The notes below the pieces were generated by a model. That model saw only the letters and a program-made list of their open reading frames with translations, did not search any database and was not told where the DNA came from. The position numbers were made by a program, and so were the translations under genes. 19,983 nt of DNA from a virus (Duplodnaviria; Heunggongvirae; Uroviricota; Caudoviricetes): IMG/VR virus record IMGVR_UViG_2703718843_000007. One strand, given 5' to 3'. Position 1 is the first letter of the stretch, and the number at the start of each line of letters is the position of its first letter. Positions 786 through 19,983 of the stretch are shown here, piece after piece.

Positions 786-1529
786 TCAGATTCCCTGGTG
801 AGTAAGAATTTTACTTTCTGAACTGCTCTGAGAGTATTGACTTGGAGAAACACCAAAATAACGTCTAAATACATAAGTAAAGTATGAGACACTGGCATAA
901 CCACAGACCTTAGCTACTTTACTAATAGGATAACAACGAGTGCTGAGTAAATATTCAGCCATTTGCATCCTCTCATCAAGTATGATCTTACTGAATGATA
1001 CCCCCTCTTCTTTCAATTTCCTCTTTAGTAAACTTTCGCTGAGATATAATCTTGATGATATATCCTTAAGACGCCATGGTGCAGATAAATCCGTATGAAT
1101 AATCGTTTTAACTTTAGCCCCTGTGCTTTTCAAACATTCAAACAGAAATACTCCAAATTGTTTTTCAGAAGAAAATGCAGAGAGACATGTAAAAGCAATA
1201 GACTCATCAAAAATTTCTATGTATTCAGCACAGTGATTAGCCCAACTAATTAATCCTTTAATTAAACTGAAGTCAGCAAAGTTTATTTTTAAATAAGATG
1301 GATATTCCCTACAATCAGAAATATCCCTTAAGTTATTAGCTTTCAAATAGCGACTAATAAACTCAGCGCCAAAATCCGCCACTATCACTCTTTCAGGATA
1401 TGTCAGGAAAAAATCTCTAGAGCTAGAGTCGACAAGTACAGATGAACCTCTCTCCAGAAACACACTCTCTTTTCCGAAATAAACATCAAAGGACTCCAAA
1501 ATCAATATAACTGAACATGTAGTTGCCAT
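786..1529 (-). CDS. AraC-family transcriptional regulator, AppY-like
   Basis: 247 aa from ATG at 1529 (ORF track starts at a GTG at 1538). C-terminal AraC helix-turn-helix WRLKDISSRLYLSESLLKRKLKEEGVSFSKIILDERMQMAEYLL...CGYASVSYFTYVFRRYFGVSPSQY; overall pattern resembles prophage-borne AppY as recalled. AT-rich gene. Confidence 0.75.
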   Translation of the reverse strand: MATTCSVILILESFDVYFGKESVFLERGSSVLVDSSSRDFFLTYPERVIVADFGAEFISRYLKANNLRDISDCREYPSYLKINFADFSLIKGLISWANHCAEYIEIFDESIAFTCLSAFSSEKQFGVFLFECLKSTGAKVKTIIHTDLSAPWRLKDISSRLYLSESLLKRKLKEEGVSFSKIILDERMQMAEYLLSTRCYPISKVAKVCGYASVSYFTYVFRRYFGVSPSQYSQSSSESKILTHQGI

Positions 1530-2113
1530 ATCATCCACCCAACTTAACTGAAACCAGGATGAAGTATATGCATATAAAGTTCACTTTGCCAAACTTCAGT
1601 ATAAAAAACCACATAAAAAATAGGGTGTGATAAAAAATACCGTAACAATAAAGCAAAGGATTATAAATTCCGTTACAGTTACAAATGATACTCAAGAAAC
1701 AATTCCTTAGGAAAAACTTATTTACAGCCAATAAGTAAGACACTTATATGATATCAAGTTTTCATAAAACATAACTAGGCTAAATAGCTGCGCCTAATAC
1801 CGCTACACTTTTGCCAGCCCATGTTTGCCTCCGGGTATTGACCCCTTCTCTACGCAACTTCAGTTCCCACCACCAACTTTGCGGCAGCTTTGTAGGATCA
1901 ATGTCTAAAAGAATAATGGTGACCGATAAGAAAACGACTGAATAACTGCAAATTTTCGCTCAAAACCTTCCTGTCAGATCCATAGCGAATCAAGTGCTGA
2001 ATGTCACAGTATCGAACAGAAAACAGTGACGATCTAACCCTTCAAGAATATTCTACGATTGTTCTGTTTAGGAAAAGCAAGGCGGGAAGTCGGGAGATAA
2101 GTCATTGATAAAG

Positions 2114-2175
2114 TGGCGGAGAGAGGGGGATTTGAACCCCCGGTAGAGTTGCCCCTACTCCGGTTTTCGAGACCG
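2114..2175 (-). other. 3' fragment (about 62 nt) of tRNA-Ser(CGA): anticodon stem-loop, long variable arm, T-arm, acceptor 3' strand and CCA; 5' half absent. Likely attachment-site remnant
   Basis: Reverse complement reads CGGTCTCGAAAACCGGAGTAGGGGCAACTCTACCGGGGGTTCAAATCCCCCTCTCTCCGCCA. Anticodon loop CUCGAAA, T-loop GGTTCAAATCC. Sequence 5' of it does not form a D-arm. Confidence 0.75.
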
Positions 2176-2667
2176 ATGATACAGAGTCGAAAAATCAAAG
2201 AGTTAAAAATTTTTCTTGGAATAAATGTCTTTAAATCGTACACGAAAAATCAATGAATTACATAACATTAAAGAAGAATATTCCAAGCCTTCTTGAGGCT
2301 ACCACCTGTTTTCAGGTGTCATTCAGACGTGATTTGCCCCAGATTGGGAAAGCACGCTTTTTTCTCAGCTATCGTCCTCTTATTTTGCCGTTACATTTCT
2401 TTTTGCACTCTAATGATTAATTTACAATAATAATATCGGTAATTATTGAGTAATAATAAATTGATTATTGCAAATGTAATTTAATTCCATCTTAGCGTTA
2501 TATTCCAATCTTTAATCTCCGCATGGAACAAGTTGCATGCGTGACTATATTAAGACAACTTATAACCACCAAAACATTTGCTTTGCAAGCAAAAACAGTG
2601 ACCATTGACTCTAAGAAAATTCCGATCTATTGTTAGGGTCATCAAAGTTACTTAACAGTATTCCGAA

Positions 2668-2769
2668 ATGAAAATACAAAGCAAGCTAATTGTCTTATTA
2701 AACATTATTATTGCATTTATATTATTTGAGCTTTTAGCTCAAAAATTTGGTTTGAGTACATTATTTTAA
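2668..2769 (+). CDS. Possible small hydrophobic peptide (33 aa, one predicted transmembrane helix); speculative
   Basis: ATG at 2668, translation MKIQSKLIVLLNIIIAFILFELLAQKFGLSTLF. No clear Shine-Dalgarno; AT-rich DNA produces such ORFs by chance. Confidence 0.15.
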   Translation: MKIQSKLIVLLNIIIAFILFELLAQKFGLSTLF

Positions 2770-2917
2770 AGCAAGGTAAACAATATCGGGCACTCTAGTT
2801 TTTATAATTAACAATTAAACGTCCATAAAATGTTATTTACTTTTCTTCGCTATTGTCACATCTTAATATAGTGGCTTACGCCACTCTACTTTCATCACAT
2901 TTTGTACGTTTATGTAC

Positions 2918-2956
2918 TCGCCATGAAGCTCTTTCATGGCGATTTTTATTCTTAAT
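2918..2956 (+). terminator. Intrinsic terminator-like hairpin in AT-rich ORF-poor DNA
   Basis: TCGCCATGAA-GCTCT-TTCATGGCGA (10-bp stem) followed by TTTTTATTCTT. Confidence 0.4.
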
Positions 2957-3033
2957 CCAAGAACATACTCCCTATCTATAGCAAAATCACTTTTTGAACA
3001 AAAGAATAACGTATTTAGGTAATCATTACGAAT

Positions 3034-3705
3034 TTACCCTATAGGTGCTACTGGCCATTCAATATCCTGTGCAGTTGACGTATCAACACGGTTCAGCAAT
3101 ACCCGATACTTTTTCCAGGCTTCCAGCAACAAGGTTTCTTCCTCCGTTGCGATTTCCAGATCCACAGCATCCTGAAGCGGCGCTATATGCTCACTGGCTA
3201 TCAGTTCATCCAGCGCGGCTGCTTTGTTCATGGCTTTGATGATATCCCGTTTCAGGAAATCAACATGTCGGTTTTCCAGTTCCGGAAAACGCCGCTGCAC
3301 CGACAGGGGGATCCCGTCGAGAATACTGGCAATTTCACCTGCGATCCGCGACAACACGAAAGTACAGAATGCGGTTTCCACCACTTCAGCGGAGTCTCTG
3401 GCATTCTTCAGTTCCTGTGCGTCGGCCTGCGCACGCGTAAGTCGATGGCGTTCGTACTCAATAGTCCCTGGCTGGAGATCTGCCTCGCTGGCCTGCCGCA
3501 GTTCTTCAACCTCCCGGCGCAGCTTTTCGTTCTCAATTTCAGCATCCCTTTCGGCATACCATTTTATGACGGCGGCAGAGTCATAAAGCACCTCATTACC
3601 CTTGCCACCGCCTCGCAGAACGGGCATTCCCTGTTCCTGCCAGTTCTGAATGGTACGGATACTCGCACCGAAAATGTCAGCCAGCTGCTTTTTGTTGACT
3701 TCCAT
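3034..3705 (-). CDS. nohD: Terminase small subunit Nu1 homolog; N-terminal ~167 aa lambda-Nu1-like, C-terminal ~56 aa divergent (reads into foreign DNA)
   Basis: [64 protein letters not shown]... matches lambda Nu1 as recalled through ...[12 protein letters not shown] at 3705 preceded by GGAATGAAC RBS. No terminase large subunit follows. Confidence 0.85.
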
Positions 3706-3882
3706 TGTTCATTCCACGGACAAAAACAGAGAAAGGAAACGACAGAGGCCAAAAAGCTCGCTTTCAGCACCTGTCGCTTCCTTTCTTTTCAGAGGGTATT
3801 TTAAATAAAAACATTAAGTTATGACGAAGAAGAACGGAAACGCCTTAAACCGGAAAATTTTCATAAATAGCGAAAACCCGCG

Positions 3883-3894
3883 AGGTCGCCGCCC
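3883..3894 (-). other. cosN cohesive-end sequence (GGGCGGCGACCT on minus strand), flanked by lambda left-end and right-end sequence; cos region spans roughly 3706..3950
   Basis: Reverse complement of 3871..3920 reads ...GGCGATCCGACAGGTTACG GGGCGGCGACCT CGCGGGTTTTCGCTATTTATGAAAATTTTCCGG..., the lambda cos junction as recalled. Confidence 0.85.
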
Positions 3895-4093
3895 CGTAAC
3901 CTGTCGGATCGCCGGAAAGGACCCGCAAAATGATAATAATTATCATCTACATGTCACAACGTGCATCTACGCCATCAAACCACGTCAAATAATCAATTAT
4001 GACGCAGGTATCGTATTAATTGATCTGCATCAACTTAACGTAAAAACAACTTCAGACAATACAAATCAGCGACACTGAATACGGGGCAACCTC

Positions 4094-4288
4094 ATGTCAA
4101 CGAAGAACAGAACCCGCAGAACAACAACCCGCAACATCCGCTTTCCTAACCAAATGATTGAACAAATTAACATCGCTCTTGAGCAAAAAGGGTCCGGGAA
4201 TTTCTCAGCCTGGGTCATTGAAGCCTGCCGTCGGAGACTAACGTCAGAAAAGAGAGCATATACATCAATTAAAAGTGATGAAGAATGA
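4094..4288 (+). CDS. ylcI: YlcI-like small protein (DUF3950)
   Basis: 64 aa MSTKNRTRRTTTRNIRFPNQMIEQINIALEQKGSGNFSAWVIEACRRRL...; same position as in the DLP12 and lambda right end. Confidence 0.8.
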   Translation: MSTKNRTRRTTTRNIRFPNQMIEQINIALEQKGSGNFSAWVIEACRRRLTSEKRAYTSIKSDEE

Positions 4289-4452
4289 ACATCCCGCGTT
4301 CTTCCCTCCGAACAGGACGATATTGTAAATTCACTTAATTACGAGGGCATTGCAGTAATTGAGTTGCAGTTTTACCACTTTCCTGACAGTGACAGACTGC
4401 GTGTTGGCTCTGTCACAGGCTAAATAGTTTGAATGATTAGCAGTTATGGTGA

Positions 4453-4659
4453 TCAGTCAACCACCAGGGAATAATCCTTCATATTATTATCGTGCTTCAC
4501 CAACGCTGCCTCAATTGCTCTGAATGCTTCCAGAGACACCTTATGTTCTATACATGCAATTACAACATCAGGGTAACTCATAGAAATGGTGCTATTAAGC
4601 ATATTTTTTACACGAATCAGATCCACGGAGGGATCATCAGCAGATTGTTCTTTATTCAT
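4453..4659 (-). CDS. ybcW: YbcW-like small protein
   Basis: 68 aa [68 protein letters not shown]; GGAGCG RBS before ATG at 4659. Confidence 0.8.
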
Positions 4660-4944
4660 TTTGTCGCTCCATGCGCTTGCTCTTCATCTAGCGGTTAAAA
4701 TATTACTTCAAATCTTTCTGTATGAAGATTTGAGCACGTTGGCCTTACATACATCTGTCGGTTGTATTTCCCTCCAGAATGCCAGCAGGACCGCACTTTG
4801 TTACGCAACCAATACTATTAAGTGAAAACATTCCTAATATTTGACATAAATCATCAACAAAACACAAAGAGGTCAGACCAGATTGAAACGATAAAAACGA
4901 TAATGCAAACTACGCGCCCTCGTATCACATGGAAGGTTTTACCA

Positions 4945-5355
4945 ATGGCTCAGGTTGCCATTTTTAAAGAAATATTCGATCAAGTGCGAAAAGATTTAAA
5001 CTGTGAATTGTTTTATTCTGAACTAAAACGTCACAACGTCTCACATTATATTTACTATCTAGCCACAGATAATATTCACATCGTGTTAGAAAACGATAAC
5101 ACCGTGTTAATAAAAGGACTTAAAAAGGTTGTAAATGTTAAATTCTCAAGAAACACGCATCTTATAGAAACGTCCTATGATAGGTTGAAATCAAGAGAAA
5201 TCACATTTCAGCAATACAGGGAAAATCTTGCTAAAGCAGGAGTTTTCCGATGGGTTACAAATATCCATGAACATAAAAGATATTACTATACCTTTGATAA
5301 TTCATTACTATTTACTGAGAGCATTCAGAACACTACACAAATCTTTCCACGCTAA
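4945..5355 (+). CDS. ybcV: YbcV-like protein (DUF1398)
   Basis: 136 aa from ATG 4945 ([47 protein letters not shown]...) with GGAAGG RBS. The ORF track's longer 4822 start is a GTG without RBS. Confidence 0.8.
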
Positions 5356-5645
5356 ATCATAACGTCCGGTTTCTTCCGTGTCAGCACCGGGGCGTTGGCA
5401 TAATGCAATACGTGTACGCGCTAAACCCTGTGTGCATCGTTTTTAATTATTCCCGGACACTCCCGCAGAGAAGTTCCCCGTCAGGGCTGTGGACATAGTT
5501 AATCCGGGAATACAATGACGATTCATCGCACCTGACATACATTAATAAATATTAACAATATGAAATTTCAACTCATTGTTTAGGGTTTGTTTAATTTTCT
5601 ACACATACGATTCTGCGAACTTCAAAAAGCATCGGGAATAACACC

Positions 5646-5939
5646 ATGAAAAAAATGCTACTCGCTACTGCGCTGGCCCTGCTTATTACAGGATGTGCTC
5701 AACAGACGTTTACTGTTCAAAACAAACCGGCAGCAGTAGCACCAAAGGAAACCATCACCCATCATTTCTTCGTTTCTGGAATTGGGCAGAAGAAAACTGT
5801 CGATGCAGCCAAAATTTGTGGCGGCGCAGAAAATGTTGTTAAAACAGAAACCCAGCAAACATTCGTAAATGGATTGCTCGGTTTTATTACTTTAGGCATT
5901 TATACTCCGCTGGAAGCGCGTGTGTATTGCTCACAATAA
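5646..5939 (+). CDS. borD: Bor outer-membrane lipoprotein (serum-resistance, lysogenic-conversion type)
   Basis: 97 aa MKKMLLATALALLITGCAQ... with lipobox LITGC; opposite in orientation to the lysis genes, as in lambda. Confidence 0.9.
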   Translation: MKKMLLATALALLITGCAQQTFTVQNKPAAVAPKETITHHFFVSGIGQKKTVDAAKICGGAENVVKTETQQTFVNGLLGFITLGIYTPLEARVYCSQ

Positions 5940-5970
5940 TTGCATGAGTTGCCCATCGATATGGGCAACT

Positions 5971-6432
5971 CTATCTGCACTGCTCATTAATATACTTCTG
6001 GGTTCCTTCCAGTTGTTTTTGCATAGTGATCAGCCTCTCTCTGAGGGTGAAATAATCCCGTTCAGCGGTGTCTGCCAGTCGGGGGGAGGCTGCATTATCC
6101 ACGCCGGAGGCGGTGGTGGCTTCACGCACTGACTGACAGACTGCTTTGATGTGCAACCGACGACGACCAGCGGCAACATCATCACGCAGAGCATCATTTT
6201 CAGCTTTCGCATCAGCTAACTCCTTCGTGTATTTTGCATCGAGCGCAGCAACATCACGCTGACGCATCTGCATGTCAGTAATTGCCGCGTTCGCCAGCTT
6301 CAGTTCTCTGGCATTTTTGTCGCGCTGGGCTTTGTAGGTAATGGCGTTATCACGGTAATGATTAACAGCCCATGACAGGTAGACGATGATGCAGATAACC
6401 AGAGCGGAGATAATCGCGGTTACTCTGTTCAT
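5971..6432 (-). CDS. rzpD: Rz inner-membrane spanin
   Basis: 153 aa [40 protein letters not shown]...; start ATG overlaps the endolysin stop (ATGA). Confidence 0.9.
6030..6212 (-). CDS. rzoD: Rz1 outer-membrane lipoprotein spanin, embedded in the +1 frame of Rz
   Basis: 60 aa [60 protein letters not shown]; lipobox VVGC and proline-rich region. Confidence 0.85.
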
Positions 6433-6926
6433 TGCTGACCCCACAAACAGATTTCACGCTCAATCTCACGACGAGTCATGAGACCTTTCCATTGCTTACC
6501 GCCAGCATATGTCCAGCGACGTAGCTGATCACATGCGCCTTTGATATCGCCCTGGTTTATTTTGCGAAGAAGCGTCGATGTTCTGAAATTGCCAGCACCC
6601 ACGTTGTAAACGAATGAGTAAAGAGCGCCGCGCGTTGTTTCCGGTATATCGACTTTGATGTACGGGTTAATTTGTCTGGCGACAGTGGCAAGGTCTTTAT
6701 TCAAGAGTGCTTTGCATTCTGCTTTGGTATACGTTTTACCGAGCATGATGTCTTTTCCGGTGTGTCCGTGACATACAGTCCATACGCCAACGATATCTTT
6801 GTATGGTACGTAGCTGACACCTTCCAGACCATCGTTACCACTTGGGCCAGTAATTAACACTGATGCTATAGCAATTGCTCCGCCACCAATAGCAGCAGCA
6901 ACGGCTTTTCGTAATGATGGAGGCAT
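6429..6926 (-). CDS. rrrD: SAR (signal-anchor-release) endolysin, phage 21 R type, T4-lysozyme fold
   Basis: 165 aa [30 protein letters not shown]... (Gly/Ala-rich N-terminal SAR domain) followed by lysozyme motifs; start overlaps the holin stop (TAATG). Confidence 0.9.
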
Positions 6927-7141
6927 TATTCACCTCTCGCAGCCTTGCGCTTATCTTCTTTAATCTTGAAATAAAGGTTTGTCAGGTACGTCAGCAGGCC
7001 AAATACCAGGCTACCCAGCACACCTATTGCTGCCCACTGTGAGGGCGTGACTTTATCGAGCAGCTGTAAAAACCAGTAACCGGCACTACCTGCTGAGGTG
7101 CCATAGGCGACACCCGTTGTTAACTTATCCATGGATTTCAT
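6926..7141 (-). CDS. essD: Class II holin, S21 (pinholin) type with dual-start motif
   Basis: 71 aa [71 protein letters not shown]; GAGGTG RBS. The ORF track's upstream extension is unlikely. Confidence 0.9.
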
Positions 7142-7728: not shown

Positions 7729-8811
7729 ATGAAAAAATTAACAGTGGCAATTTCTGCTGTAGCTGCATCAGTACTGATGGCGATGTCTGCTCAGGCAGCT
7801 GAAATTTATAATAAAGACAGTAACAAGCTGGATCTGTACGGGAAAGTTAATGCTAAGCACTACTTCTCCTCTAATGATGCAGATGATGGTGATACTACTT
7901 ATGCCCGTCTTGGCTTCAAAGGTGAAACCCAAATCAACGATCAACTGACTGGTTTCGGTCAGTGGGAATATGAATTCAAAGGCAACCGCGCTGAATCTCA
8001 AGGTTCCTCCAAAGATAAAACCCGTCTTGCCTTCGCTGGCCTGAAATTCGGTGACTACGGCTCCATCGATTATGGCCGTAACTACGGTGTAGCATACGAT
8101 ATTGGTGCATGGACCGACGTTCTGCCAGAATTCGGTGGCGATACCTGGACCCAAACAGATGTATTCATGACTGGTCGCACCACAGGTGTTGCAACTTATC
8201 GTAACAATGACTTCTTTGGTCTGGTTGATGGTCTGAACTTTGCTGCTCAGTATCAGGGTAAAAATGACCGCACTGACGTAACTGAAGCTAATGGTGATGG
8301 TTTCGGTTTCTCCACTACTTATGAGTATGAAGGATTCGGTGTAGGTGCAACCTATGCTAAATCTGACCGCACTAATAATCAGGTTATCTACGGTAACAAC
8401 AGCCTGAATGCATCTGGTCAAAATGCTGAAGTATGGGCAGCTGGTCTGAAATATGATGCGAACAACATCTATCTGGCTACCACCTATTCTGAAACCCAGA
8501 ACATGACTGTTTTTGGTAATAACCATATTGCCAACAAAGCACAAAACTTCGAAGTAGTTGCACAATATCAGTTCGACTTCGGTCTGCGTCCGTCCGTTGC
8601 TTACCTGCAATCTAAAGGAAAAGACTTGGGTGCGTGGGGTGATCAGGACCTGGTTGAATATATTGATGTAGGTGCAACCTATTACTTCAACAAAAATATG
8701 TCCACTTTTGTTGATTACAAAATCAACCTGATTGATAAGAGCGATTTCACGAAAGCATCTGGCGTTGCTACCGATGATATCGTTGCTGTAGGTATGGTTT
8801 ACCAGTTCTAA
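7729..8811 (+). CDS. nmpC: General porin of the OmpC/OmpF family, NmpC/Lc type (prophage-encoded)
   Basis: 360 aa precursor [23 protein letters not shown]|[17 protein letters not shown]... ending ...VAVGMVYQF. Intact; oriented opposite to Q and the lysis genes. Confidence 0.9.
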
Positions 8812-8999: not shown

Positions 9000-9383
9000 T
9001 TAATTAGAGTTATTAACAACGATATCCATCTCTAACCGGATATCTAATGCCATTAACATCCCTTCAATTATACCCTCAGCCTTCTGTAACCTTTTCCCGA
9101 TATAACCATCAGAGCAGCAATGCTTACCTGCCAGTGACATGAATGTCATACCGACTACATAATAATCTACTAATAAATCGTGCAAATCGCTGTTGTTCTT
9201 TTTCAGACGGGCCATGCACCCGCAAATGATCATCGCGTCATCGTCACAACATTGCGGGCGAGATTTTACTTTTGAAGTAATTAATCCCTTAAAACCGGCG
9301 GCAATGGACGACCAGGTCACATCTTCATGATTATTAGCCGCCCACGCTCCCCAACGCTCAAGAACCATCTGAATATCACGCAT
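9000..9383 (-). CDS. quuD: Late-gene antiterminator Q (phage 21/82-like)
   Basis: 127 aa from ATG 9383 ([34 protein letters not shown]...[16 protein letters not shown]...). The ORF track offers a start 15 nt upstream at 9398. Confidence 0.9.
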
Positions 9384-12521: not shown

Positions 12522-12680
12522 ACATGTATTAAAAAAATGATATTTTTATGTACATAGTCTATTGAAAATTGCCGCGATAAAATGCCAACACCCGCTTCAT
12601 CGCGGCACTCTGGCGACACTCCTTGAAAATCAGATTCGTGCTCACCTTTCCTTCCCGTTCTTCCCTGGTAGCGAACCGGT

Positions 12681-13127
12681 AATCATCCGATCTGCGTTAC
12701 CGAGTGGATGGATGAATGCCGCCGCGAACCATTCAAAACCCGCGAAGGCAGAGAAATTACGGGGCCGTGGCAGTCGCATCCCAAACGGATGTTACGGCAT
12801 AAAGCCATGATTCAGTGTGCCCGTCTGGCCTTCGGATTTGCTGGTATCTATGACAAGGATGAAGCCGAGCGCATTGTCGAAAATACCGCATACACCGCAG
12901 AACGTCAGCCGGAACGCGACATTACTCCGGTTAACGATGAAACCATGCAGGAGATTAACACTCTGCTGATTGCCCTGGACAAAACATGGGATGACGACTT
13001 ATTGCCGCTCTGTTCCCAGATATTTCGCCGCGACATTCGCGCATCGTCAGAACTGACACAGGCCGAAGCAGTGAAAGCTCTTGGATTCCTGAAACAGAAA
13101 GCCACTGAGCAGAAGGTGGCAGCATGA
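12681..13127 (+). pseudogene. bet: bet (Red-beta single-strand annealing protein), C-terminal ~149 codons only; N-terminal ~110 codons replaced by unrelated DNA
   Basis: In-frame translation from ~12681 reads NHPICVTEWMDECRREPFKTREGREITGPWQSHPKRMLRHKAMIQCARLAFGFAGIYDK...[17 protein letters not shown], matching lambda Bet C-terminus as recalled. Upstream in-frame stop at 12669-12671; stop overlaps exo start (ATGA). Confidence 0.85.
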
Positions 13128-13804
13128 CACCGGACATTATCCTGCAGCGTACCGGGATCGACGTGAGAGCTGTCGAACAGGGGGATGATGCATGGCACAA
13201 ATTACGGCTCGGCGTCATCACCGCTTCAGAAGTTCACAACGTGATAGCCAAGCCCCGCTCAGGAAAGAAGTGGCCTGACATGAAAATGTCCTACTTCCAC
13301 ACCCTGCTGGCTGAGGTTTGCACCGGTGTGGCTCCGGAAGTTAATGCTAAGGCGCTGGCATGGGGAAAACAGTACGAGAACGACGCCAGAACCCTGTTTG
13401 AATTCACTTCCGGCGTGAATGTTACTGAATCCCCGATCATCTATCGCGACGAAAGTATGCGCACCGCCTGCTCTCCCGATGGTTTATGCAGTGACGGCAA
13501 TGGCCTTGAGCTGAAATGCCCGTTTACCTCCCGGGATTTCATGAAGTTCCGGCTCGGTGGTTTCGAGGCCATAAAGTCGGCTTACATGGCCCAGGTGCAG
13601 TACAGCATGTGGGTGACACGAAAAGATGCCTGGTACTTTGCCAACTATGACCCGCGTATGAAGCGTGAAGGACTGCATTATGTCGTGGTTGAGCGGGATG
13701 AAAAGTACATGGCGAGTTTTGACGAGATGGTGCCGGTGTTCATCGAAAAAATGGACGAGGCACTGGCTGAAATTGGTTTTGTATTTGGGGAGCAATGGCG
13801 ATGA
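13124..13804 (+). CDS. exo: Lambda exonuclease (Red-alpha)
   Basis: 226 aa [68 protein letters not shown]...GFVFGEQWR; near-identical to lambda Exo as recalled. Confidence 0.95.
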
Positions 13805-13983
13805 CGCATCCTCACGATAATATCCGGGTAGGCGCAATCACTTTCGTCTACTCCGTTACAAAGCGAGGCTGGGTATTTCCCGGCCTTTCTGTTATCCGAA
13901 ATCCACTGAAAGCACAGCGGCTGGCTGAGGAGATAAATAATAAACGAGGGGCTGTATGCACAAAGCATCTCCTGTTGAGTTAA
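13801..13983 (+). CDS. Lambda orf60a-like hypothetical protein
   Basis: 60 aa from ATG 13801 (ATGA overlap with exo stop): [60 protein letters not shown]. Confidence 0.7.
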
Positions 13984-14147
13984 GAACGAGTATCGAGATG
14001 GCACATAGCCTTGCTCAAATTGGAATCAGGTTTGTGCCAATACCAGTAGAAACAGACGAAGAATTTCATACGTTAGCCACATCCCTTTCACAAAAACTGG
14101 AAATGATGGTGGCGAAAGCAGAAGCAGATGAGAGAGACCAGGTATGA
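13956..14147 (+). CDS. Lambda orf63-like hypothetical protein
   Basis: 63 aa [63 protein letters not shown]. Confidence 0.7.
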   Translation: MHKASPVELRTSIEMAHSLAQIGIRFVPIPVETDEEFHTLATSLSQKLEMMVAKAEADERDQV

Positions 14148-14157
14148 CAACCACTGA

Positions 14158-14439
14158 ATGCATTTTTCTGGCAGCGGGCTTCATATTCTGTGTGCTTATG
14201 CTTGCCGACATGGGGCTTGTTCAGTGACACCTCAGCAGGAAAACGCCCTTCGCAGCATTGCCCGTCAGGCTAATTCTGAAATCAAAAAAGCCAGACAGCA
14301 GTTTCCGGATAAAAACGTCGATGACATTTGCCGTAGCGTACTGAAGAAGCACCGCGAAACGGTAACGCTGATGGGATTCACACCGACTCATTTAAGTCTA
14401 GCAATCGGCATGTTAAACGGCGTTTTTAAGGAACGGTGA
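14158..14439 (+). CDS. Hypothetical protein in the lambda orf61 position; start uncertain
   Basis: 93-codon ORF from ATG 14158 ending ...TLMGFTPTHLSLAIGMLNGVFKER. Length does not fit a 61-aa product, so start or frame relative to lambda is unclear. Confidence 0.4.
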   Translation: MHFSGSGLHILCAYACRHGACSVTPQQENALRSIARQANSEIKKARQQFPDKNVDDICRSVLKKHRETVTLMGFTPTHLSLAIGMLNGVFKER

Positions 14440-14537
14440 ACATGAAAAGCAAAATCATCAGGGAGCTACAGGCTCCTTTTTTATTATTCGCATTCACCCT
14501 CAAGCGTATTAACCAACAATTCAGGGATTAATGAAAG

Positions 14538-14759
14538 ATGGCAGACATCATTGATTCAGCATCAGAAATTGAAGAATTACAGCGCAACACAGCAATAAAA
14601 ATGCGCCGCCTGAACCACCAGGCTATATCTGCCACTCATTGTTGTGAGTGTGGCGATCCGATAGATGAACGAAGACGCCTGGCCGTTCAGGGTTGTCGGA
14701 CTTGTGCAAGTTGCCAGGAGGATCTGGAACTTATCAGTAAACAGAGAGGTTCGAAGTGA
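14538..14759 (+). CDS. TraR/DksA-family C4 zinc-finger protein (lambda orf73 type)
   Basis: 73 aa MADIIDSASEIEELQRNTAIKMRRLNHQAISATHCCECGDPIDERRRLAVQGCRTCASCQEDLELISKQRGSK with CxxC...CxxC motif. Confidence 0.8.
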   Translation: MADIIDSASEIEELQRNTAIKMRRLNHQAISATHCCECGDPIDERRRLAVQGCRTCASCQEDLELISKQRGSK

Positions 14760-15178
14760 GCGTAATTCACTCTCAGGCACTGCGTGAAGCGGCAGAGCAG
14801 GCAATGCATGACAACTGGGGATTTGACGCGGACCTTTTCCATGAGCTGGTAACACCATCGATTGTGCTGACACTGCTGGATGAACGGGAAAGAAACCAGC
14901 AGTACATCAAACGCCGCGACCAGGAGAACGAGGATATTGCGCTAACGGTGAGGAAACTGCGTGTTGAGCTGGAGACAGCAAAAATCAAAACTCAACGAGC
15001 AGCGTGAGTAGAAGGTGTTATCTCGGATGGAAGTAAGCGTATTGCTGAACTGGAGGCCTGGGTTGAATACACAAGAGCTGCATACGTAAGAGCAAAAGAC
15101 AAGGGAGATTTGATCAGAGTTATTACCCGACAACCAACGGGATTTTACGCTTACGTACCATGTAATTAGGAATCCTTG
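14756..15178 (+). pseudogene. ea22: ea22-like gene interrupted by an in-frame TGA (15005-15007) and truncated at its 3' end by an AT-rich insertion
   Basis: GTG start overlapping orf73 stop; 83 codons MSVIHSQALREAAEQAMHDNWGFDADLFHELVTPSIVLTLLDERERNQQYIKRRDQENEDIALTVRKLRVELETAKIKTQRAA, then TGA, then 56 more sense codons in the same frame (VEGVISDGSKRIAELEAWVEYTRAAYVRAKDKGDLIRV...) to a stop at 15176-15178. Confidence 0.6.
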
Positions 15179-17009: not shown

Positions 17010-17051
17010 TTCTTAGCATCAGCAACTACTGCCTTTGGTGGAAATTATATC

Positions 17052-17080
17052 TGAACTCGCTACGGCGAGTTTTGTTTTAT
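17052..17080 (+). terminator. Intrinsic terminator after the 142-aa moron gene
   Basis: GAACTCGC-TACG-GCGAGTT stem-loop followed by TTGTTTTAT. Confidence 0.55.
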
Positions 17081-17091
17081 GGAGATGATAA

Positions 17092-17259
17092 ATGCACTTC
17101 CGAGTCACAGGTGAATGGAATGGAGAACCATTCAACAGAGTTATCGAAGCAGAGAACATCAATGACTGCTATGACCACTGGATGATATGGGCGCAGATAG
17201 CACATGCAGACATAACCAATATTCGAATTGAAGAACTGAAAGAACACCAAGCCGCCTGA
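17092..17259 (+). CDS. Lambda orf55-like small protein
   Basis: 55 aa MHFRVTGEWNGEPFNRVIEAENINDCYDHWMIWAQIAHADITNIRIEELKEHQAA; GGAGA RBS; translated by hand (below ORF-track cutoff). Confidence 0.65.
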   Translation: MHFRVTGEWNGEPFNRVIEAENINDCYDHWMIWAQIAHADITNIRIEELKEHQAA

Positions 17260-17274
17260 TGGCGGTTTTTTCTT
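17251..17274 (+). terminator. Terminator-like hairpin between orf55 and xis (tL-type)
   Basis: GCCGCC-TGAT-GGCGG followed by TTTTTTCTT; overlaps the orf55 stop codon. Confidence 0.45.
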
Positions 17275-17298
17275 GCGTGTAATTGCGGAGACTTTGCG

Positions 17299-17517
17299 AT
17301 GTACTTGACACTTCAGGAGTGGAACGCTCGCCAGCGACGCCCAAGAAGCCTTGAAACAGTTCGTCGATGGGTGCGCGAATGCAGGATATTCCCTCCTCCG
17401 GTTAAGGATGGAAGAGAATATCTGTTCCACGAATCAGCGGTAAAGGTTGACTTAAATCGACCAGTAACAGGTAGCCTTTTGAAGAGGATCAGAAATGGGA
17501 AGAAGGCGAAGTCATGA
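17299..17517 (+). CDS. xis: Excisionase Xis (lambda type)
   Basis: 72 aa MYLTLQEWNARQRRPRSLETVRRWVRECRIFPPPVKDGREYLFHESAVKVDLNRPVTGSLLKRIRNGKKAKS. Confidence 0.95.
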   Translation: MYLTLQEWNARQRRPRSLETVRRWVRECRIFPPPVKDGREYLFHESAVKVDLNRPVTGSLLKRIRNGKKAKS

Positions 17518-18565
17518 GCGCCGGGATTTACCCCCTAACCTTTATATAAGAAACAATGGATATTACTGCTACAGGGACCCAAGGACGGGTAAAGAGTTTG
17601 GATTAGGCCGAGACAGGCGAATCGCAATCACTGAAGCTATACAGGCCAACATTGAGTTATTTTCAGGACACAAACACAAGCCTCTGACAGCGAGAATCAA
17701 CAGTGATAATTCCGTTACGTTACATTCATGGCTTGATCGCTACGAAAAAATCCTGGCCAGCAGAGGAATCAAGCAGAAGACACTCATAAATTACATGAGC
17801 AAAATTAAAGCAATAAGGAGGGGTCTGCCTGATGCTCCACTTGAAGACATCACCACAAAAGAAATTGCGGCAATGCTCAATGGATACATAGACGAGGGAA
17901 AGGCGGCATCAGCCAAGTTAATCAGATCAACACTGAGCGATGCATTCCGAGAGGCTATGGCTGAAGGCCATATAACAACAAACCCGGTCGCAGCCACTCG
18001 CGCTGCAAAATCAGAGGTAAGGAGATCAAGACTTACGGCTGACGAATACCTGAAAATTTATCAAGCAGCAGAATCATCACCATGTTGGCTTAGACTTGCA
18101 ATGGAACTGGCTGTTGTTACCGGGCAGCGAGTTGGTGATTTATGCGAAATGAAGTGGTCTGATATCGTAGATGGATATCTTTATGTCGAGCAAAGCAAAA
18201 CAGGCGTAAAAATTGCCATCCCAACAACATTGCATGTTGATGCTCTCGGGATATCAATGAAGGAAACACTTGATAAATGCAAAAAGATTCTTGGCGGAGA
18301 AACCATAATTGCATCTACTCGTCGTGAACCGCTTTCATCCGGCACAGTATCAAGGTATTTTATGCGCGCACGAAAAGCATCAGGTCTCTCCTTCGAAGGG
18401 GATCCGCCAACCTTTCACGAGTTGCGCAGTTTGTCTGCAAGACTCTATGAGAAGCAGATAAGCGATAAATTTGCTCAACATCTTCTCGGGCATAAGTCGG
18501 ACACCATGGCATCACAGTATCGTGATGACAGAGGCAGGGAGTGGGACAAAATTGAAATCAAATAA
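17495..18565 (+). CDS. int: Tyrosine integrase Int (lambda type)
   Basis: 356 aa MGRRRSHERRDLPPNLYIRNNGYYCYRDPRTGKEFGLGRDRRIAITEAIQANIELFSGHKHKPLTARINSDN... with C-terminal catalytic region (HELRSLSARLYE...LLGHKSDTMASQY); start overlaps xis. Confidence 0.95.
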   Translation: MGRRRSHERRDLPPNLYIRNNGYYCYRDPRTGKEFGLGRDRRIAITEAIQANIELFSGHKHKPLTARINSDNSVTLHSWLDRYEKILASRGIKQKTLINYMSKIKAIRRGLPDAPLEDITTKEIAAMLNGYIDEGKAASAKLIRSTLSDAFREAMAEGHITTNPVAATRAAKSEVRRSRLTADEYLKIYQAAESSPCWLRLAMELAVVTGQRVGDLCEMKWSDIVDGYLYVEQSKTGVKIAIPTTLHVDALGISMKETLDKCKKILGGETIIASTRREPLSSGTVSRYFMRARKASGLSFEGDPPTFHELRSLSARLYEKQISDKFAQHLLGHKSDTMASQYRDDRGREWDKIEIK

Positions 18566-18660
18566 TGATTTTATTTTGACTGATAGTGACCTGTTCGTTG
18601 CAACAAATTGATAAGCAATGCTTTTTTATAATGCCAACTTAGTATAAAAAAGCAGGCTTC
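18566..18660. other. attL (B-O-P' junction) of the lambda attachment site: P' arm with Int arm-type sites, 15-bp core at 18639..18653, then bacterial B arm
   Basis: Reverse complement of 18600..18661 reads TGAAGCCTGC TTTTTTATACTAA GTTGGCATTATAAAAAAGCATTGCTTATCAATTTGTTG..., i.e. bacterial arm + core + P' arm; P' contains AGGTCACTAT and CAGTCAAAAT arm-type repeats. Confidence 0.85.
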
Positions 18661-18699: not shown

Positions 18700-19983
18700 G
18701 TGAACACATTTTCAGTTTCCCGTCTGGCGCTGGCATTGGCTTTTGGCGTGACGCTGACCGCCTGTAGCTCAACCCCGCCCGATCAACGTCCTTCTGATCA
18801 AACCGCGCCTGGTACCTCTTCTCGCCCGATTCTGTCGGCAAAAGAAGCGCAGAATTTCGATGCTCAACACTATTTTGCATCCCTGACACCAGGTGCTGCA
18901 GCGTGGAATCCTTCCCCGATTACCCTGCCTGCGCAACCTGACTTTGTTGTCGGCCCGGCGGGCACTCAAGGTGTAACGCATACCACGATTCAGGCGGCGG
19001 TAGATGCGGCAATTATCAAGCGTACCAACAAGCGCCAGTATATTGCCGTGATGCCTGGTGAGTATCAGGGAACGGTATATGTCCCTGCCGCTCCGGGTGG
19101 AATTACTCTGTACGGTACAGGTGAAAAACCGATTGATGTGAAGATTGGGCTTTCCCTTGATGGTGGCATGAGCCCTGCCGACTGGCGTCACGACGTCAAC
19201 CCGCGCGGCAAATATATGCCAGGTAAACCAGCGTGGTATATGTACGATAGCTGCCAGAGCAAACGCAGCGACAGTATCGGTGTTCTCTGCTCTGCGGTCT
19301 TCTGGTCACAAAACAATGGCCTGCAACTGCAAAATCTGACCATCGAAAACACGCTGGGCGATAGCGTAGATGCAGGTAACCATCCGGCGGTGGCACTGCG
19401 TACTGATGGTGACCAGGTACAGATTAACAACGTTAACATTCTCGGTCGTCAGAACACCTTCTTTGTCACCAACAGCGGTGTGCAGAACCGTCTGGAAACA
19501 AATCGTCAGCCGCGTACGCTGGTGACCAACAGCTACATTGAAGGGGATGTGGATATCGTTTCTGGTCGCGGCGCAGTGGTGTTCGATAACACCGAATTCC
19601 GCGTGGTGAACTCACGTACTCAGCAAGAAGCGTATGTGTTTGCACCGGCTACGCTGTCCAACATTTACTACGGTTTCCTCGCCGTAAACAGCCGTTTCAA
19701 TGCTTTCGGTGATGGTGTGGCGCAACTGGGCCGCTCGCTGGATGTTGATGCCAATACCAACGGTCAGGTGGTGATCCGTGATAGCGCCATCAACGAAGGT
19801 TTTAACACGGCTAAACCGTGGGCCGATGCGGTGATCTCTAATCGTCCGTTTGCGGGTAATACCGGCAGCGTAGATGATAACGACGAAATACAGCGCAATC
19901 TGAATGACACTAACTACAACCGCATGTGGGAATACAATAACCGCGGCGTGGGTAGTAAAGTGGTTGCAGAGGCGAAGAAGTAA
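18700..19983 (+). CDS. ybhC: YbhC outer-membrane lipoprotein (pectinesterase-family fold, acyl-CoA thioesterase), chromosomal flank of attB-lambda
   Basis: 427 aa from GTG 18700 with GGAG RBS; MNTFSVSRLALALAFGVTLTACSSTPPDQRPSDQ... (lipobox LTAC); stop at window end. Confidence 0.9.
   Translation: MNTFSVSRLALALAFGVTLTACSSTPPDQRPSDQTAPGTSSRPILSAKEAQNFDAQHYFASLTPGAAAWNPSPITLPAQPDFVVGPAGTQGVTHTTIQAAVDAAIIKRTNKRQYIAVMPGEYQGTVYVPAAPGGITLYGTGEKPIDVKIGLSLDGGMSPADWRHDVNPRGKYMPGKPAWYMYDSCQSKRSDSIGVLCSAVFWSQNNGLQLQNLTIENTLGDSVDAGNHPAVALRTDGDQVQINNVNILGRQNTFFVTNSGVQNRLETNRQPRTLVTNSYIEGDVDIVSGRGAVVFDNTEFRVVNSRTQQEAYVFAPATLSNIYYGFLAVNSRFNAFGDGVAQLGRSLDVDANTNGQVVIRDSAINEGFNTAKPWADAVISNRPFAGNTGSVDDNDEIQRNLNDTNYNRMWEYNNRGVGSKVVAEAKK

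Follow-up and report, generated by a model that had tools for sequence, protein, structure and literature searches.

The window analyzed here, a 19,983-nt stretch recorded as virus IMGVR_UViG_2703718843_000007, is a piece of an Escherichia coli chromosome carrying a cryptic lambdoid prophage at the lambda attachment site (att-lambda), between ybhB and the bio genes on one side and ybhC on the other. Towards its left end lie a cos site and a gene for Nu1, the small terminase subunit, with an altered carboxyl terminus. This region is very probably the cos/small-terminase end of a decaying lambda-family prophage, whose cos could still be cut by a helper phage of lambda specificity and would then mainly feed recombination. 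Two illegitimate deletions, corresponding to lambda 698-22387 and 32474-40448, disabled the prophage, and the sequence at 3730-3924 is a cos site of lambda specificity that is almost perfect.

An almost perfect cos site of lambda specificity

The 12-nt cohesive end of cosN (GGGCGGCGACCT) has a single exact match in the window, at 3883-3894 on the minus strand, which places the boundary between lambda positions 48502 and 1 at 3895/3894. Its flanks match those of lambda on both sides, as the first-pass annotation, made from the sequence alone, had described them, and they also match those of live phages. The packaging-termination subsite cosQ (GGGTCCT; PMC4669245) lies at 3918-3924 on the same strand and is identical to lambda 48473-48479. 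Between cosQ and cosN there is one substitution (lambda 48486 T>C), which is also present in live phages.

On the other side of cosN, cosB (3730-3845, minus strand) contains R3, the I1 spacer, R2, and R1 in the order and orientation of lambda. R2 and R1 were located as a 16-bp inverted pair in lambda, and R3 was taken as lambda 50-65 (PMC9026076). R3 (3830-3845) and R1 (3730-3745), both on the minus strand, are identical to lambda, and I1 and the spacer between R3 and R2 are likewise unchanged. R2 (3771-3786, minus strand) carries a single A>G at 3777, which is the sole difference over 261 nt from the isolated phages Turner and PhiR68_2. The assumption that cosB is free of mutations was therefore correct for R3, I1, and R1, but not for R2.

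The substitution in R2 aligns with base pair 55 of R3, which falls within the segment contacted by the small terminase subunit TerS (55-63; PMC9026076). Because phage N15 packages using a single R site, and because a transition of a conserved base is reported to be milder in R2 or R1 than in R3 (PMC9026076), initiation of packaging at this cos would be expected to be at most weakened. The same two observations bear on a bleaker reading, in which the R2 mutation and the lack of a cognate terminase have turned the site into a dead relic that is never used and has no consequence. The transition does lie at a TerS-contact position, and the element encodes no large terminase subunit (TerL). However, R3, which is the critical site, as well as I1, R1, cosN, cosQ, and the spacing are identical to those of live phages, and phages of lambda specificity are common in E. 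coli, with 103 phage records matching the cos/Nu1 block of the window. We therefore regard a cos without any consequence as improbable.

A deletion fused Nu1 to the end of Tfa

The open reading frame at 3034-3705 (minus strand) encodes residues 1-169 (of 181) of lambda Nu1 and continues, without a change of frame, into the final 54 residues of the tail-fiber-assembly protein Tfa. The Nu1 part, a small terminase of the NohD type (3199-3705, minus strand; lambda 191-697), comprises the winged helix-turn-helix DNA-binding and oligomerization parts and matches Pfam Phage_Nu1 over residues 1-164 (E = 1.5e-100). It is identical to lambda Nu1 at 168 of 169 residues, with one conservative change (L132I), so that the N-terminal DNA-binding part is indeed kept, as had been proposed. 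A match of this N-terminus to 'mad1' in PADLOC was discarded, as it reflects helix-turn-helix similarity only.

The carboxyl-terminal part had been read as unrelated AT-rich DNA. Instead, the last 54 codons and the stop codon (3034-3198, minus strand) encode the in-frame end of Tfa, with a match to Pfam Caudo_TAP over residues 170-221 (E = 9e-24). At the DNA level this part is 92% identical to lambda tfa (22388-22535) and identical to the 3' end of tfa in strain PEC1009. Its G+C content is ~51%, and DNA of 31% G+C begins only past the stop codon at 3034.

The two parts meet at 3199-3200, where lambda 697 is joined to lambda 22390 at a 2-nt microhomology (TA) without inserted bases. The deletion (lambda 698-22387, 21.7 kb) took the Nu1 tail, terminase gene A, all head and tail genes, and the 5' part of tfa. 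Nu1 thereby exchanged the final 12 residues of its TerL-binding tail for 54 residues of Tfa, and the element was left without an A gene. The foreign carboxyl terminus is a deletion scar, and not an acquired module. Annotation, Pfam and PHROG matches, and mapping against lambda found no large-terminase, portal, capsid, or tail genes in the window, in agreement with the first-pass annotation, and with terminase A and the head and tail genes deleted, the element is unable to package itself.

None of the 5,426 complete E. coli genomes searched contains the junction. We nevertheless rejected the possibility that it is an artefact of assembly or of the window, as 8 draft contigs from NCBI encode the exact 223-aa fusion protein, with the three loci displayed all at att-lambda.

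Boundaries of the prophage and its closest relatives

The left boundary of the prophage lies just outside the window. In three draft genomes encoding the identical 223-aa fusion, an attR core (ACTTTTTTATACTAA, 1 mismatch) was found 227 bp to the left of the window, with ybhB, bioA, and bioB coming next. Terminase and structural genes beyond the left end, which would have spoken against the first-pass annotation, were looked for in these three genomes, and only host genes were found after attR. In the P arm of attR, P1, H1, P2, and X1 are kept, while X2, F (Fis), and H2 have diverged. A one-base change is seen in the C core-type site of attR (CAACTTT vs CAGCTTT; PEC1009 locus L003, 2774-2990).

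At the opposite end, attL (18566-18653, minus strand) contains an exact 15-bp core (GCTTTTTTATACTAA) at 18639-18653, a P' arm equal to that of lambda attP, and host sequence on its B side, and ybhC (18700-19983) lies downstream. From core to core, the prophage measures 18,880 bp. The adjacent recombination genes, xis (17299-17517, plus strand; Pfam Exc) and int (17495-18565, plus strand; Pfam Arm-DNA-bind_1 and Phage_integrase), encode proteins identical to those of lambda at 71 of 72 and 351 of 356 residues, respectively, and Int keeps all of its catalytic residues (R212, K235, H308, R311, H333, and Y342). The earlier description of int, xis, and attL as intact was therefore accurate.

The closest complete relative is PEC1009, which is 99.97-99.98% identical to the window on both flanks of a single difference, a stretch of 3,878 bp that is present in PEC1009 and missing from the window. 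VG48B2 and PEC1009 have a backbone in common with the window, with flanks that are 99.96-99.98% identical, and both, like ABW_A33, carry the prophage at att-lambda. These near-identical strains display three different deletions of the late region: VG48B2 has a full Nu1, followed by 81 codons of A and then tfa (A'::tfa), PEC1009 has Nu1(170)::lom'-stf-tfa, and the window has Nu1::tfa'. The presence of several deletion variants in near-identical sister strains indicates that the late region was lost repeatedly and independently in a very young lineage. VG48B2 additionally lacks int and xis. The second deletion, by contrast, is common to VG48B2 and PEC1009 and thus predates the late-region deletions. 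Its junction (ren'::bet', 12679-12683) replaces lambda 32474-40448, which removed gam, kil, cIII, N, rexAB, cI, cro, cII, O, P, and ori, plus the promoters pL and pR. Here, the 3' end of ren is joined head-to-head to a truncated bet, and ren and RecT pseudogenes abut in the annotation.

Predicted fate of the cos site

For the element itself, the cos would be without function. If a phage of lambda specificity were growing in the cell, however, its terminase would be expected to bind and nick the chromosomal cos. The resulting double-strand break would mainly promote homologous recombination with the phage, leading to marker rescue and hybrid formation. Such exchange could take place across flanks that are 99% identical, extending over 3.2 kb from Rz across cos to Nu1. 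A precedent is found in DLP12 (qsr') of K-12, where the cos/Nu1 block constitutes the most extensive homology to lambda, and where half of the sequenced lambda x DLP12 crossovers adjoin cos, which the authors ascribe to breaks at cos (PMC3945230).

Packaging in situ would proceed leftwards, through the fusion gene, an AraC-type gene, attR, and bio-uvrB. The nearest experimental counterparts are cosmids and the dilysogen assays of Feiss, in which a cos in cis suffices for recognition, a chromosomal cos is cut in situ, and a helper terminase packages repressed prophage chromosomes if two cos sites bracket a genome length (PMC4669245). Packaging in these systems requires a pair of cos sites spaced by about one genome length, whereas the window element has one. 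In PEC1009, the 50 kb that follow in the direction of packaging contain no second exact cosN, and termination and stable particles are therefore not expected. Excision by helper Int and Xis provided in trans is conceivable, but would yield a non-replicating circle of 18.9 kb, a very poor packaging substrate. Rare mobilization by this route is likewise conceivable, although the element shows no sign of adaptation for it.

A few observations pull against the picture of a decaying prophage that serves mainly as a recombination substrate. The intact int, xis, and attL, along with 97-99% identity to live phages, mean that the element could still be mobilized occasionally. In addition, the A>G in R2 lies in the TerS-contacted segment and initiation may be weaker, with cleavage of this cos being a prediction from its sequence. 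Finally, the recurrence of the Nu1 breakpoint described below suggests that the decay was not purely random.

A rival proposal, raised as speculation in the first-pass annotation, is that the element is a cos-type satellite, which excises using its own or a helper's Int and Xis and is packaged into helper capsids via cos. The parts that this would take are present, namely cos, int, xis, attL, and attR. It is known that a cloned cos renders plasmids transferable by lambda and phi80, and that EcCICFT073, a phage-inducible chromosomal island (PICI) of E. coli, is packaged as multimers in full-size capsids (PMC6092414). Similarly, other prophages provide for the packaging of defective O157 prophages that lack terminase or head genes, and this includes cases in which the defective prophage and its helper share a cos (PMC2669165). 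PICIs of Gram-negative bacteria such as EcCICFT073 also resemble the window element in being chromosomal, in having an integrase and helper-like cosQ and cosN, and in lacking capsid and tail genes, and the window element would in principle be packageable by a lambda-type terminase.

The modules that define a satellite are missing, however. PICIs have alpA, pri-rep/ori, rpp, and their own att sites, lack cosB and lysis genes, and replicate after helper induction (PMC6092414, PMC9026076). No pri-rep/ori, alpA-type activator or other helper-sensing regulator, or rpp was found in the annotation of the PEC1009 locus or among the scanned open reading frames, and O, P, and ori of the prophage are gone. 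EcCICFT073 is no longer transferred when int or alpA is deleted, and without pri-rep its transfer drops ~100-fold (PMC6092414). The element furthermore has no pL to express int and xis and no packaging-redirection gene. Where rpp would be expected, it has an authentic phage cosB and a Nu1 remnant, while PICIs have no phage cosB (PMC9026076), and it keeps genes for holin, endolysin, and spanin as well as a fragment of Tfa. Its gene order and its 97-99% identity to lambda and DLP12 are those of a plain phage deletion derivative, the sister strains hold other deletion variants of the same prophage, and the junction is rare, with a fixed location in the three loci shown. Size poses a further problem, as the 18.9-kb monomer amounts to ~39% of the lambda genome and a dimer to ~78%. 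The packaging length window of lambda, reportedly determined by Feiss et al. in 1977, is roughly 78-105%, so that a dimer would be at the lower limit and 18.9 kb far below it. Taken together, we consider it extremely unlikely that the element is a satellite.

A further comparison is with the prophages Sp4 and Sp7 of O157 Sakai, which are defective, with a disrupted nu1 or missing morphogenesis genes, and have a cos matching that of a co-resident competent prophage (PMC2669165). Despite its disrupted nu1, Sp4 is packaged, most likely by the terminase of Sp14, which has an identical cos (PMC2669165). Sp4, however, retains the greater part of its genome length, and regional replication from its neighbor amplifies it, whereas the window element is 18.9 kb long and has no known co-resident helper.

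A recurrent breakpoint in Nu1

The position at which Nu1 is interrupted is not particular to the window. Five prophages at att-lambda or related to those found there break Nu1 within 3 nt of each other, each with a different partner: tfa' in the window, lom' in PEC1009, J' in E. coli C, the 3' end of J' in TUM9812, and non-phage cargo in ABW_A33. The shared site corresponds to lambda 694-700 (window 3196-3202; Nu1 codon 169/170), with the sequence ...AACTGATA|CCGGGG, and lies 11-14 nt upstream of the start of terminase gene A.

A protein search with the fusion gave the same picture. Among the best 120 Nu1 homologs, 79 carry a foreign tail, and 59 of these 79 diverge from the lambda protein at residues 168-170, including 46 at residue 169, while every other position from 144 to 181 accounts for 0-3 breaks. 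Roughly 39 distinct tails are found at residues 168-170, with partners that include internal parts of gpA, portal, Nu3/C, E, FI, FII, U, I, J, Lom, Stf, Tfa, a P4-type integrase, and unassigned sequence. An Enterobacter-type Nu1, 85% identical to the query fusion, has the same break, and the local sequence is conserved in the intact allele. Two breakpoints, at residues 169 and 131 (P0005 and P0009), each lead precisely into the start codon of a complete tfa (MAFRMSEQ...), and deletions may also end preferentially at the stf/tfa boundary.

At the DNA level, we sampled contigs carrying lambda 674-694, of which 120 came from metagenomes and 119 from viruses. Breaks at lambda 694-700 were present in 11 of the 120 metagenome contigs (10 distinct junctions), with 4 more at 719 that represent a single event, and breaks at 697-699 in 7 of the 119 viral contigs, with one at 720. 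Altogether, 18 of the 20 distinct junctions in lambda 694-834 fall within the 7-nt window (binomial P about 6e-22). Other alignment ends, between lambda 700 and 5000, are scattered, with 1-4 loci per position. The breaks are also one-sided: 18 of the 239 loci that were anchored on the Nu1 side are broken, whereas the 153 loci with an anchor on the A side (lambda 706-732) include no break within the 200 nt upstream (Fisher P = 2e-4). Lambda 694-700 is accordingly a sharp, one-sided hot spot for deletions in lambda-type prophages. The exact lambda terminase sequence also turned up on short or ~48-kb contigs of Pseudomonas, Shewanella, Bradyrhizobium, Paenibacillus, and other unrelated genera (L257-L291), which is most likely contaminating lambda control DNA.

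The junctions themselves show microhomologies of 2-5 nt that end in TA. Almost every intact partner site ends in (G)NTA, and the sites show patchy similarity to TGAACTGATACC(G), which points to microhomology junctions with one fixed partner. The Nu1(169)::tfa junction of the window recurs in a cryptic prophage between mdtA and ibs/yegL (L135 and L136, 8001-8675 plus flanks), which differs in its integrase (78% nucleotide identity), in a tfa remnant that is ~10% diverged, and in its cargo. This could represent either an independent recurrence or the spread of the cos block by recombination. Part of that cargo, an AAA_15/AAA_21 ATPase and a reverse transcriptase, looks defence-like.

It is possible, though on balance doubtful, that this deletion hot spot reflects a site-specific, one-sided hot spot for DNA breaks at lambda 694-700, which repeatedly disarms lambda-type prophages, deleting rightwards and sparing cos and Nu1(1-169). 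We know of no report of a deletion hot spot in Nu1 or of secondary terminase sites in the literature searched, which covered classical lambda work only partly. A candidate cause was sought in the sequence. Besides cosN, the site is the only match in lambda to TAC(C)GGGG[CT][GT]GC, the pattern of the left half of cosN, which was derived after the fact, and the terminase nick is predicted 2-3 nt to the right of the modal break (697). A cosB-anchored terminase might therefore occasionally nick this cosN look-alike, an idea that we put forward tentatively and hold to be rather unlikely. The cosB side would then be protected and the Chi-free right side degraded, after which the ends would rejoin at microhomologies of 2-5 nt, such that the prophage would delete its own terminase and morphogenesis genes. 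If so, this would explain why the cosB side is retained, why the lost side is Chi-free lambda DNA, and why A is always deleted.

Several other causes were considered and set aside. A Chi-like GCTGGATG lies at lambda 682-689, but lambda contains 71 better (7/8) Chi-like sites, many of them in the same orientation in the left arm. A hairpin or quasi-palindrome was rejected, as the local fold is no better than that of shuffled sequence (z = 0.11), and a restriction cut at CCSGG/CCNGG was rejected because a second CCGGG, ~60 nt downstream, shows no breaks. Insertion of an insertion sequence (IS) followed by an adjacent deletion is not supported, since there is no IS at any junction, and none of the best 120 homologs is a Nu1 of 169-171 aa truncated by an IS end; an IS1 is present in nohD of some K-12 strains, near codon 53. 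Self-targeting by a type I-E clustered regularly interspaced short palindromic repeats (CRISPR) system found no support either, with no matching spacer in 5,426 genomes when queried as repeat-protospacer-repeat in one strand orientation and with I-F arrays not included. The consensus sequences of Int, invertase, and gyrase, compared by eye only, gave no convincing fit.

The recurrence could alternatively be explained by selection, if Nu1(1-169)::Tfa were a domesticated anti-phage protein. Such a decoy would bind cosB or heterodimerize with incoming Nu1 without recruiting TerL, and its benefit would account for the repeated truncation. Consistent with this, the fusion retains intact DNA-binding and oligomerization parts but not the extreme end of the TerL-binding tail (domain map from PMC9026076), dozens of independent Nu1 truncations stop at the same residue, and the PICI protein Rpp shows that TerS-like partners are able to block helper packaging (PMC9026076). 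A cluster of breakpoints within 7 nt with microhomology, however, points to a mutational hot spot, where selection would be less sharp, and the carboxyl-terminal partners are arbitrary and often out of frame. The 12 residues lost here are also fewer than the 30-residue truncation reported for poor TerL binding (PMC9026076), and expression would depend on Q-dependent late transcription. A decoy function is therefore very improbable.

Gene content and comparison with DLP12

Six blocks of the window are colinear with lambda, at 92-99% identity. The block 3053-3200 corresponds to the 3' part of tfa (lambda 22388-22535; 92% identical), 3199-3894 to the left end and Nu1 codons 1-169 (lambda 1-697; 99.3%), and 3895-6432 to Rz, bor, and the right end (lambda 45966-48502; 99.3%). 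Further along, 12584-12683 matches the 3' end of ren (lambda 40449-40548), 12679-15054 the stretch from ea22' to bet' (lambda 30094-32473), and 17044-18653 the att core, int, and xis (lambda 27724-29333).

The stretch from Rz to ren is a DLP12-type late and nin region, with essD, rrrD, a porin gene, quuD, rusA, ninE, and ybcN. Gene coordinates in the late region were mapped by offset from the RefSeq annotation of the 99.98%-identical PEC1009 locus, supplemented by Pfam and PHROG matches. Beyond cos, these genes are ylcI (4094-4288, plus strand), ybcW (4453-4659, minus strand), ybcV (4945-5355, plus strand), and bor (5646-5939, plus strand), followed by the retained lysis genes rzpD (5971-6432), rrrD (6429-6926), and essD (6926-7141), all on the minus strand, which encode spanin, endolysin, and holin, respectively. 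An intact porin gene (7729-8811, plus strand; nmpC-like, annotated as ompC) lies between the lysis cassette and the Q gene quuD (9000-9383, minus strand).

The bio-side end of the prophage (1-1538) contains remnants of IS3-family elements (~1-750) and a gene for an AraC-family regulator (786-1538, minus strand). This regulator is 29% identical to AppY and occupies the position that appY has in DLP12. With the AT-rich DNA at 1539-3033, its gene forms a block of 31-37% G+C in which no further convincing gene was found. A 15-mer resembling the att core (GGTTTTTTATACTGA, 1596-1610, minus strand) lies upstream of the AraC-type gene; with 2 mismatches and no arm-like flanks, it is probably a chance match in AT-rich DNA.

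DLP12 is among the closest known systems. It has the late region in common with the window, from ylcI, ybcW, ybcV, bor, rzpD, rrrD, essD, and the porin gene to quuD, rusA, ninE, and ybcN, at 96.5-99.3% identity, as well as a lambda-type cos and a Nu1 homolog (nohD) followed by a large deletion that reaches tfa, and, as described above, it recombines with lambda around cos. Unlike the window element, which is located at att-lambda and has lambda-type int and xis, DLP12 is located at argU and has its own integrase. DLP12 also retains a full nohD and 103 codons of A, whereas Nu1 of the window is cut at codon 169 and continues in frame into Tfa, and the cargo adjoining tfa is appY in DLP12 and the AraC-type gene in the window. 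In the DLP12 locus of K-12 AG100, an IS5 is present where the window has the porin gene, essD, and rrrD. The region therefore belongs with the cos/nohD ends of the cryptic prophages DLP12 and Qin, from which it differs in its location, its exact deletion, and its cargo.

Implications for lambda-type prophages

In itself, a cos/Nu1 remnant of this kind is ordinary, and with it the DLP12/Qin type of cryptic prophage is seen at att-lambda as well. Proteins annotated as 'DNA-packaging protein' or as NohD-like that have odd carboxyl termini are, by the same token, deletion scars. A near-perfect chromosomal cos between flanks that are 99% identical to lambda provides an entry point through which lambda-type phages could acquire late genes and morons, which here would include the porin gene, bor, and the AraC-type regulator. 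If a single 7-nt site does cause a large share of structural-gene deletions, the decay of prophages in E. coli would be partly programmed by sequence, rather than random.

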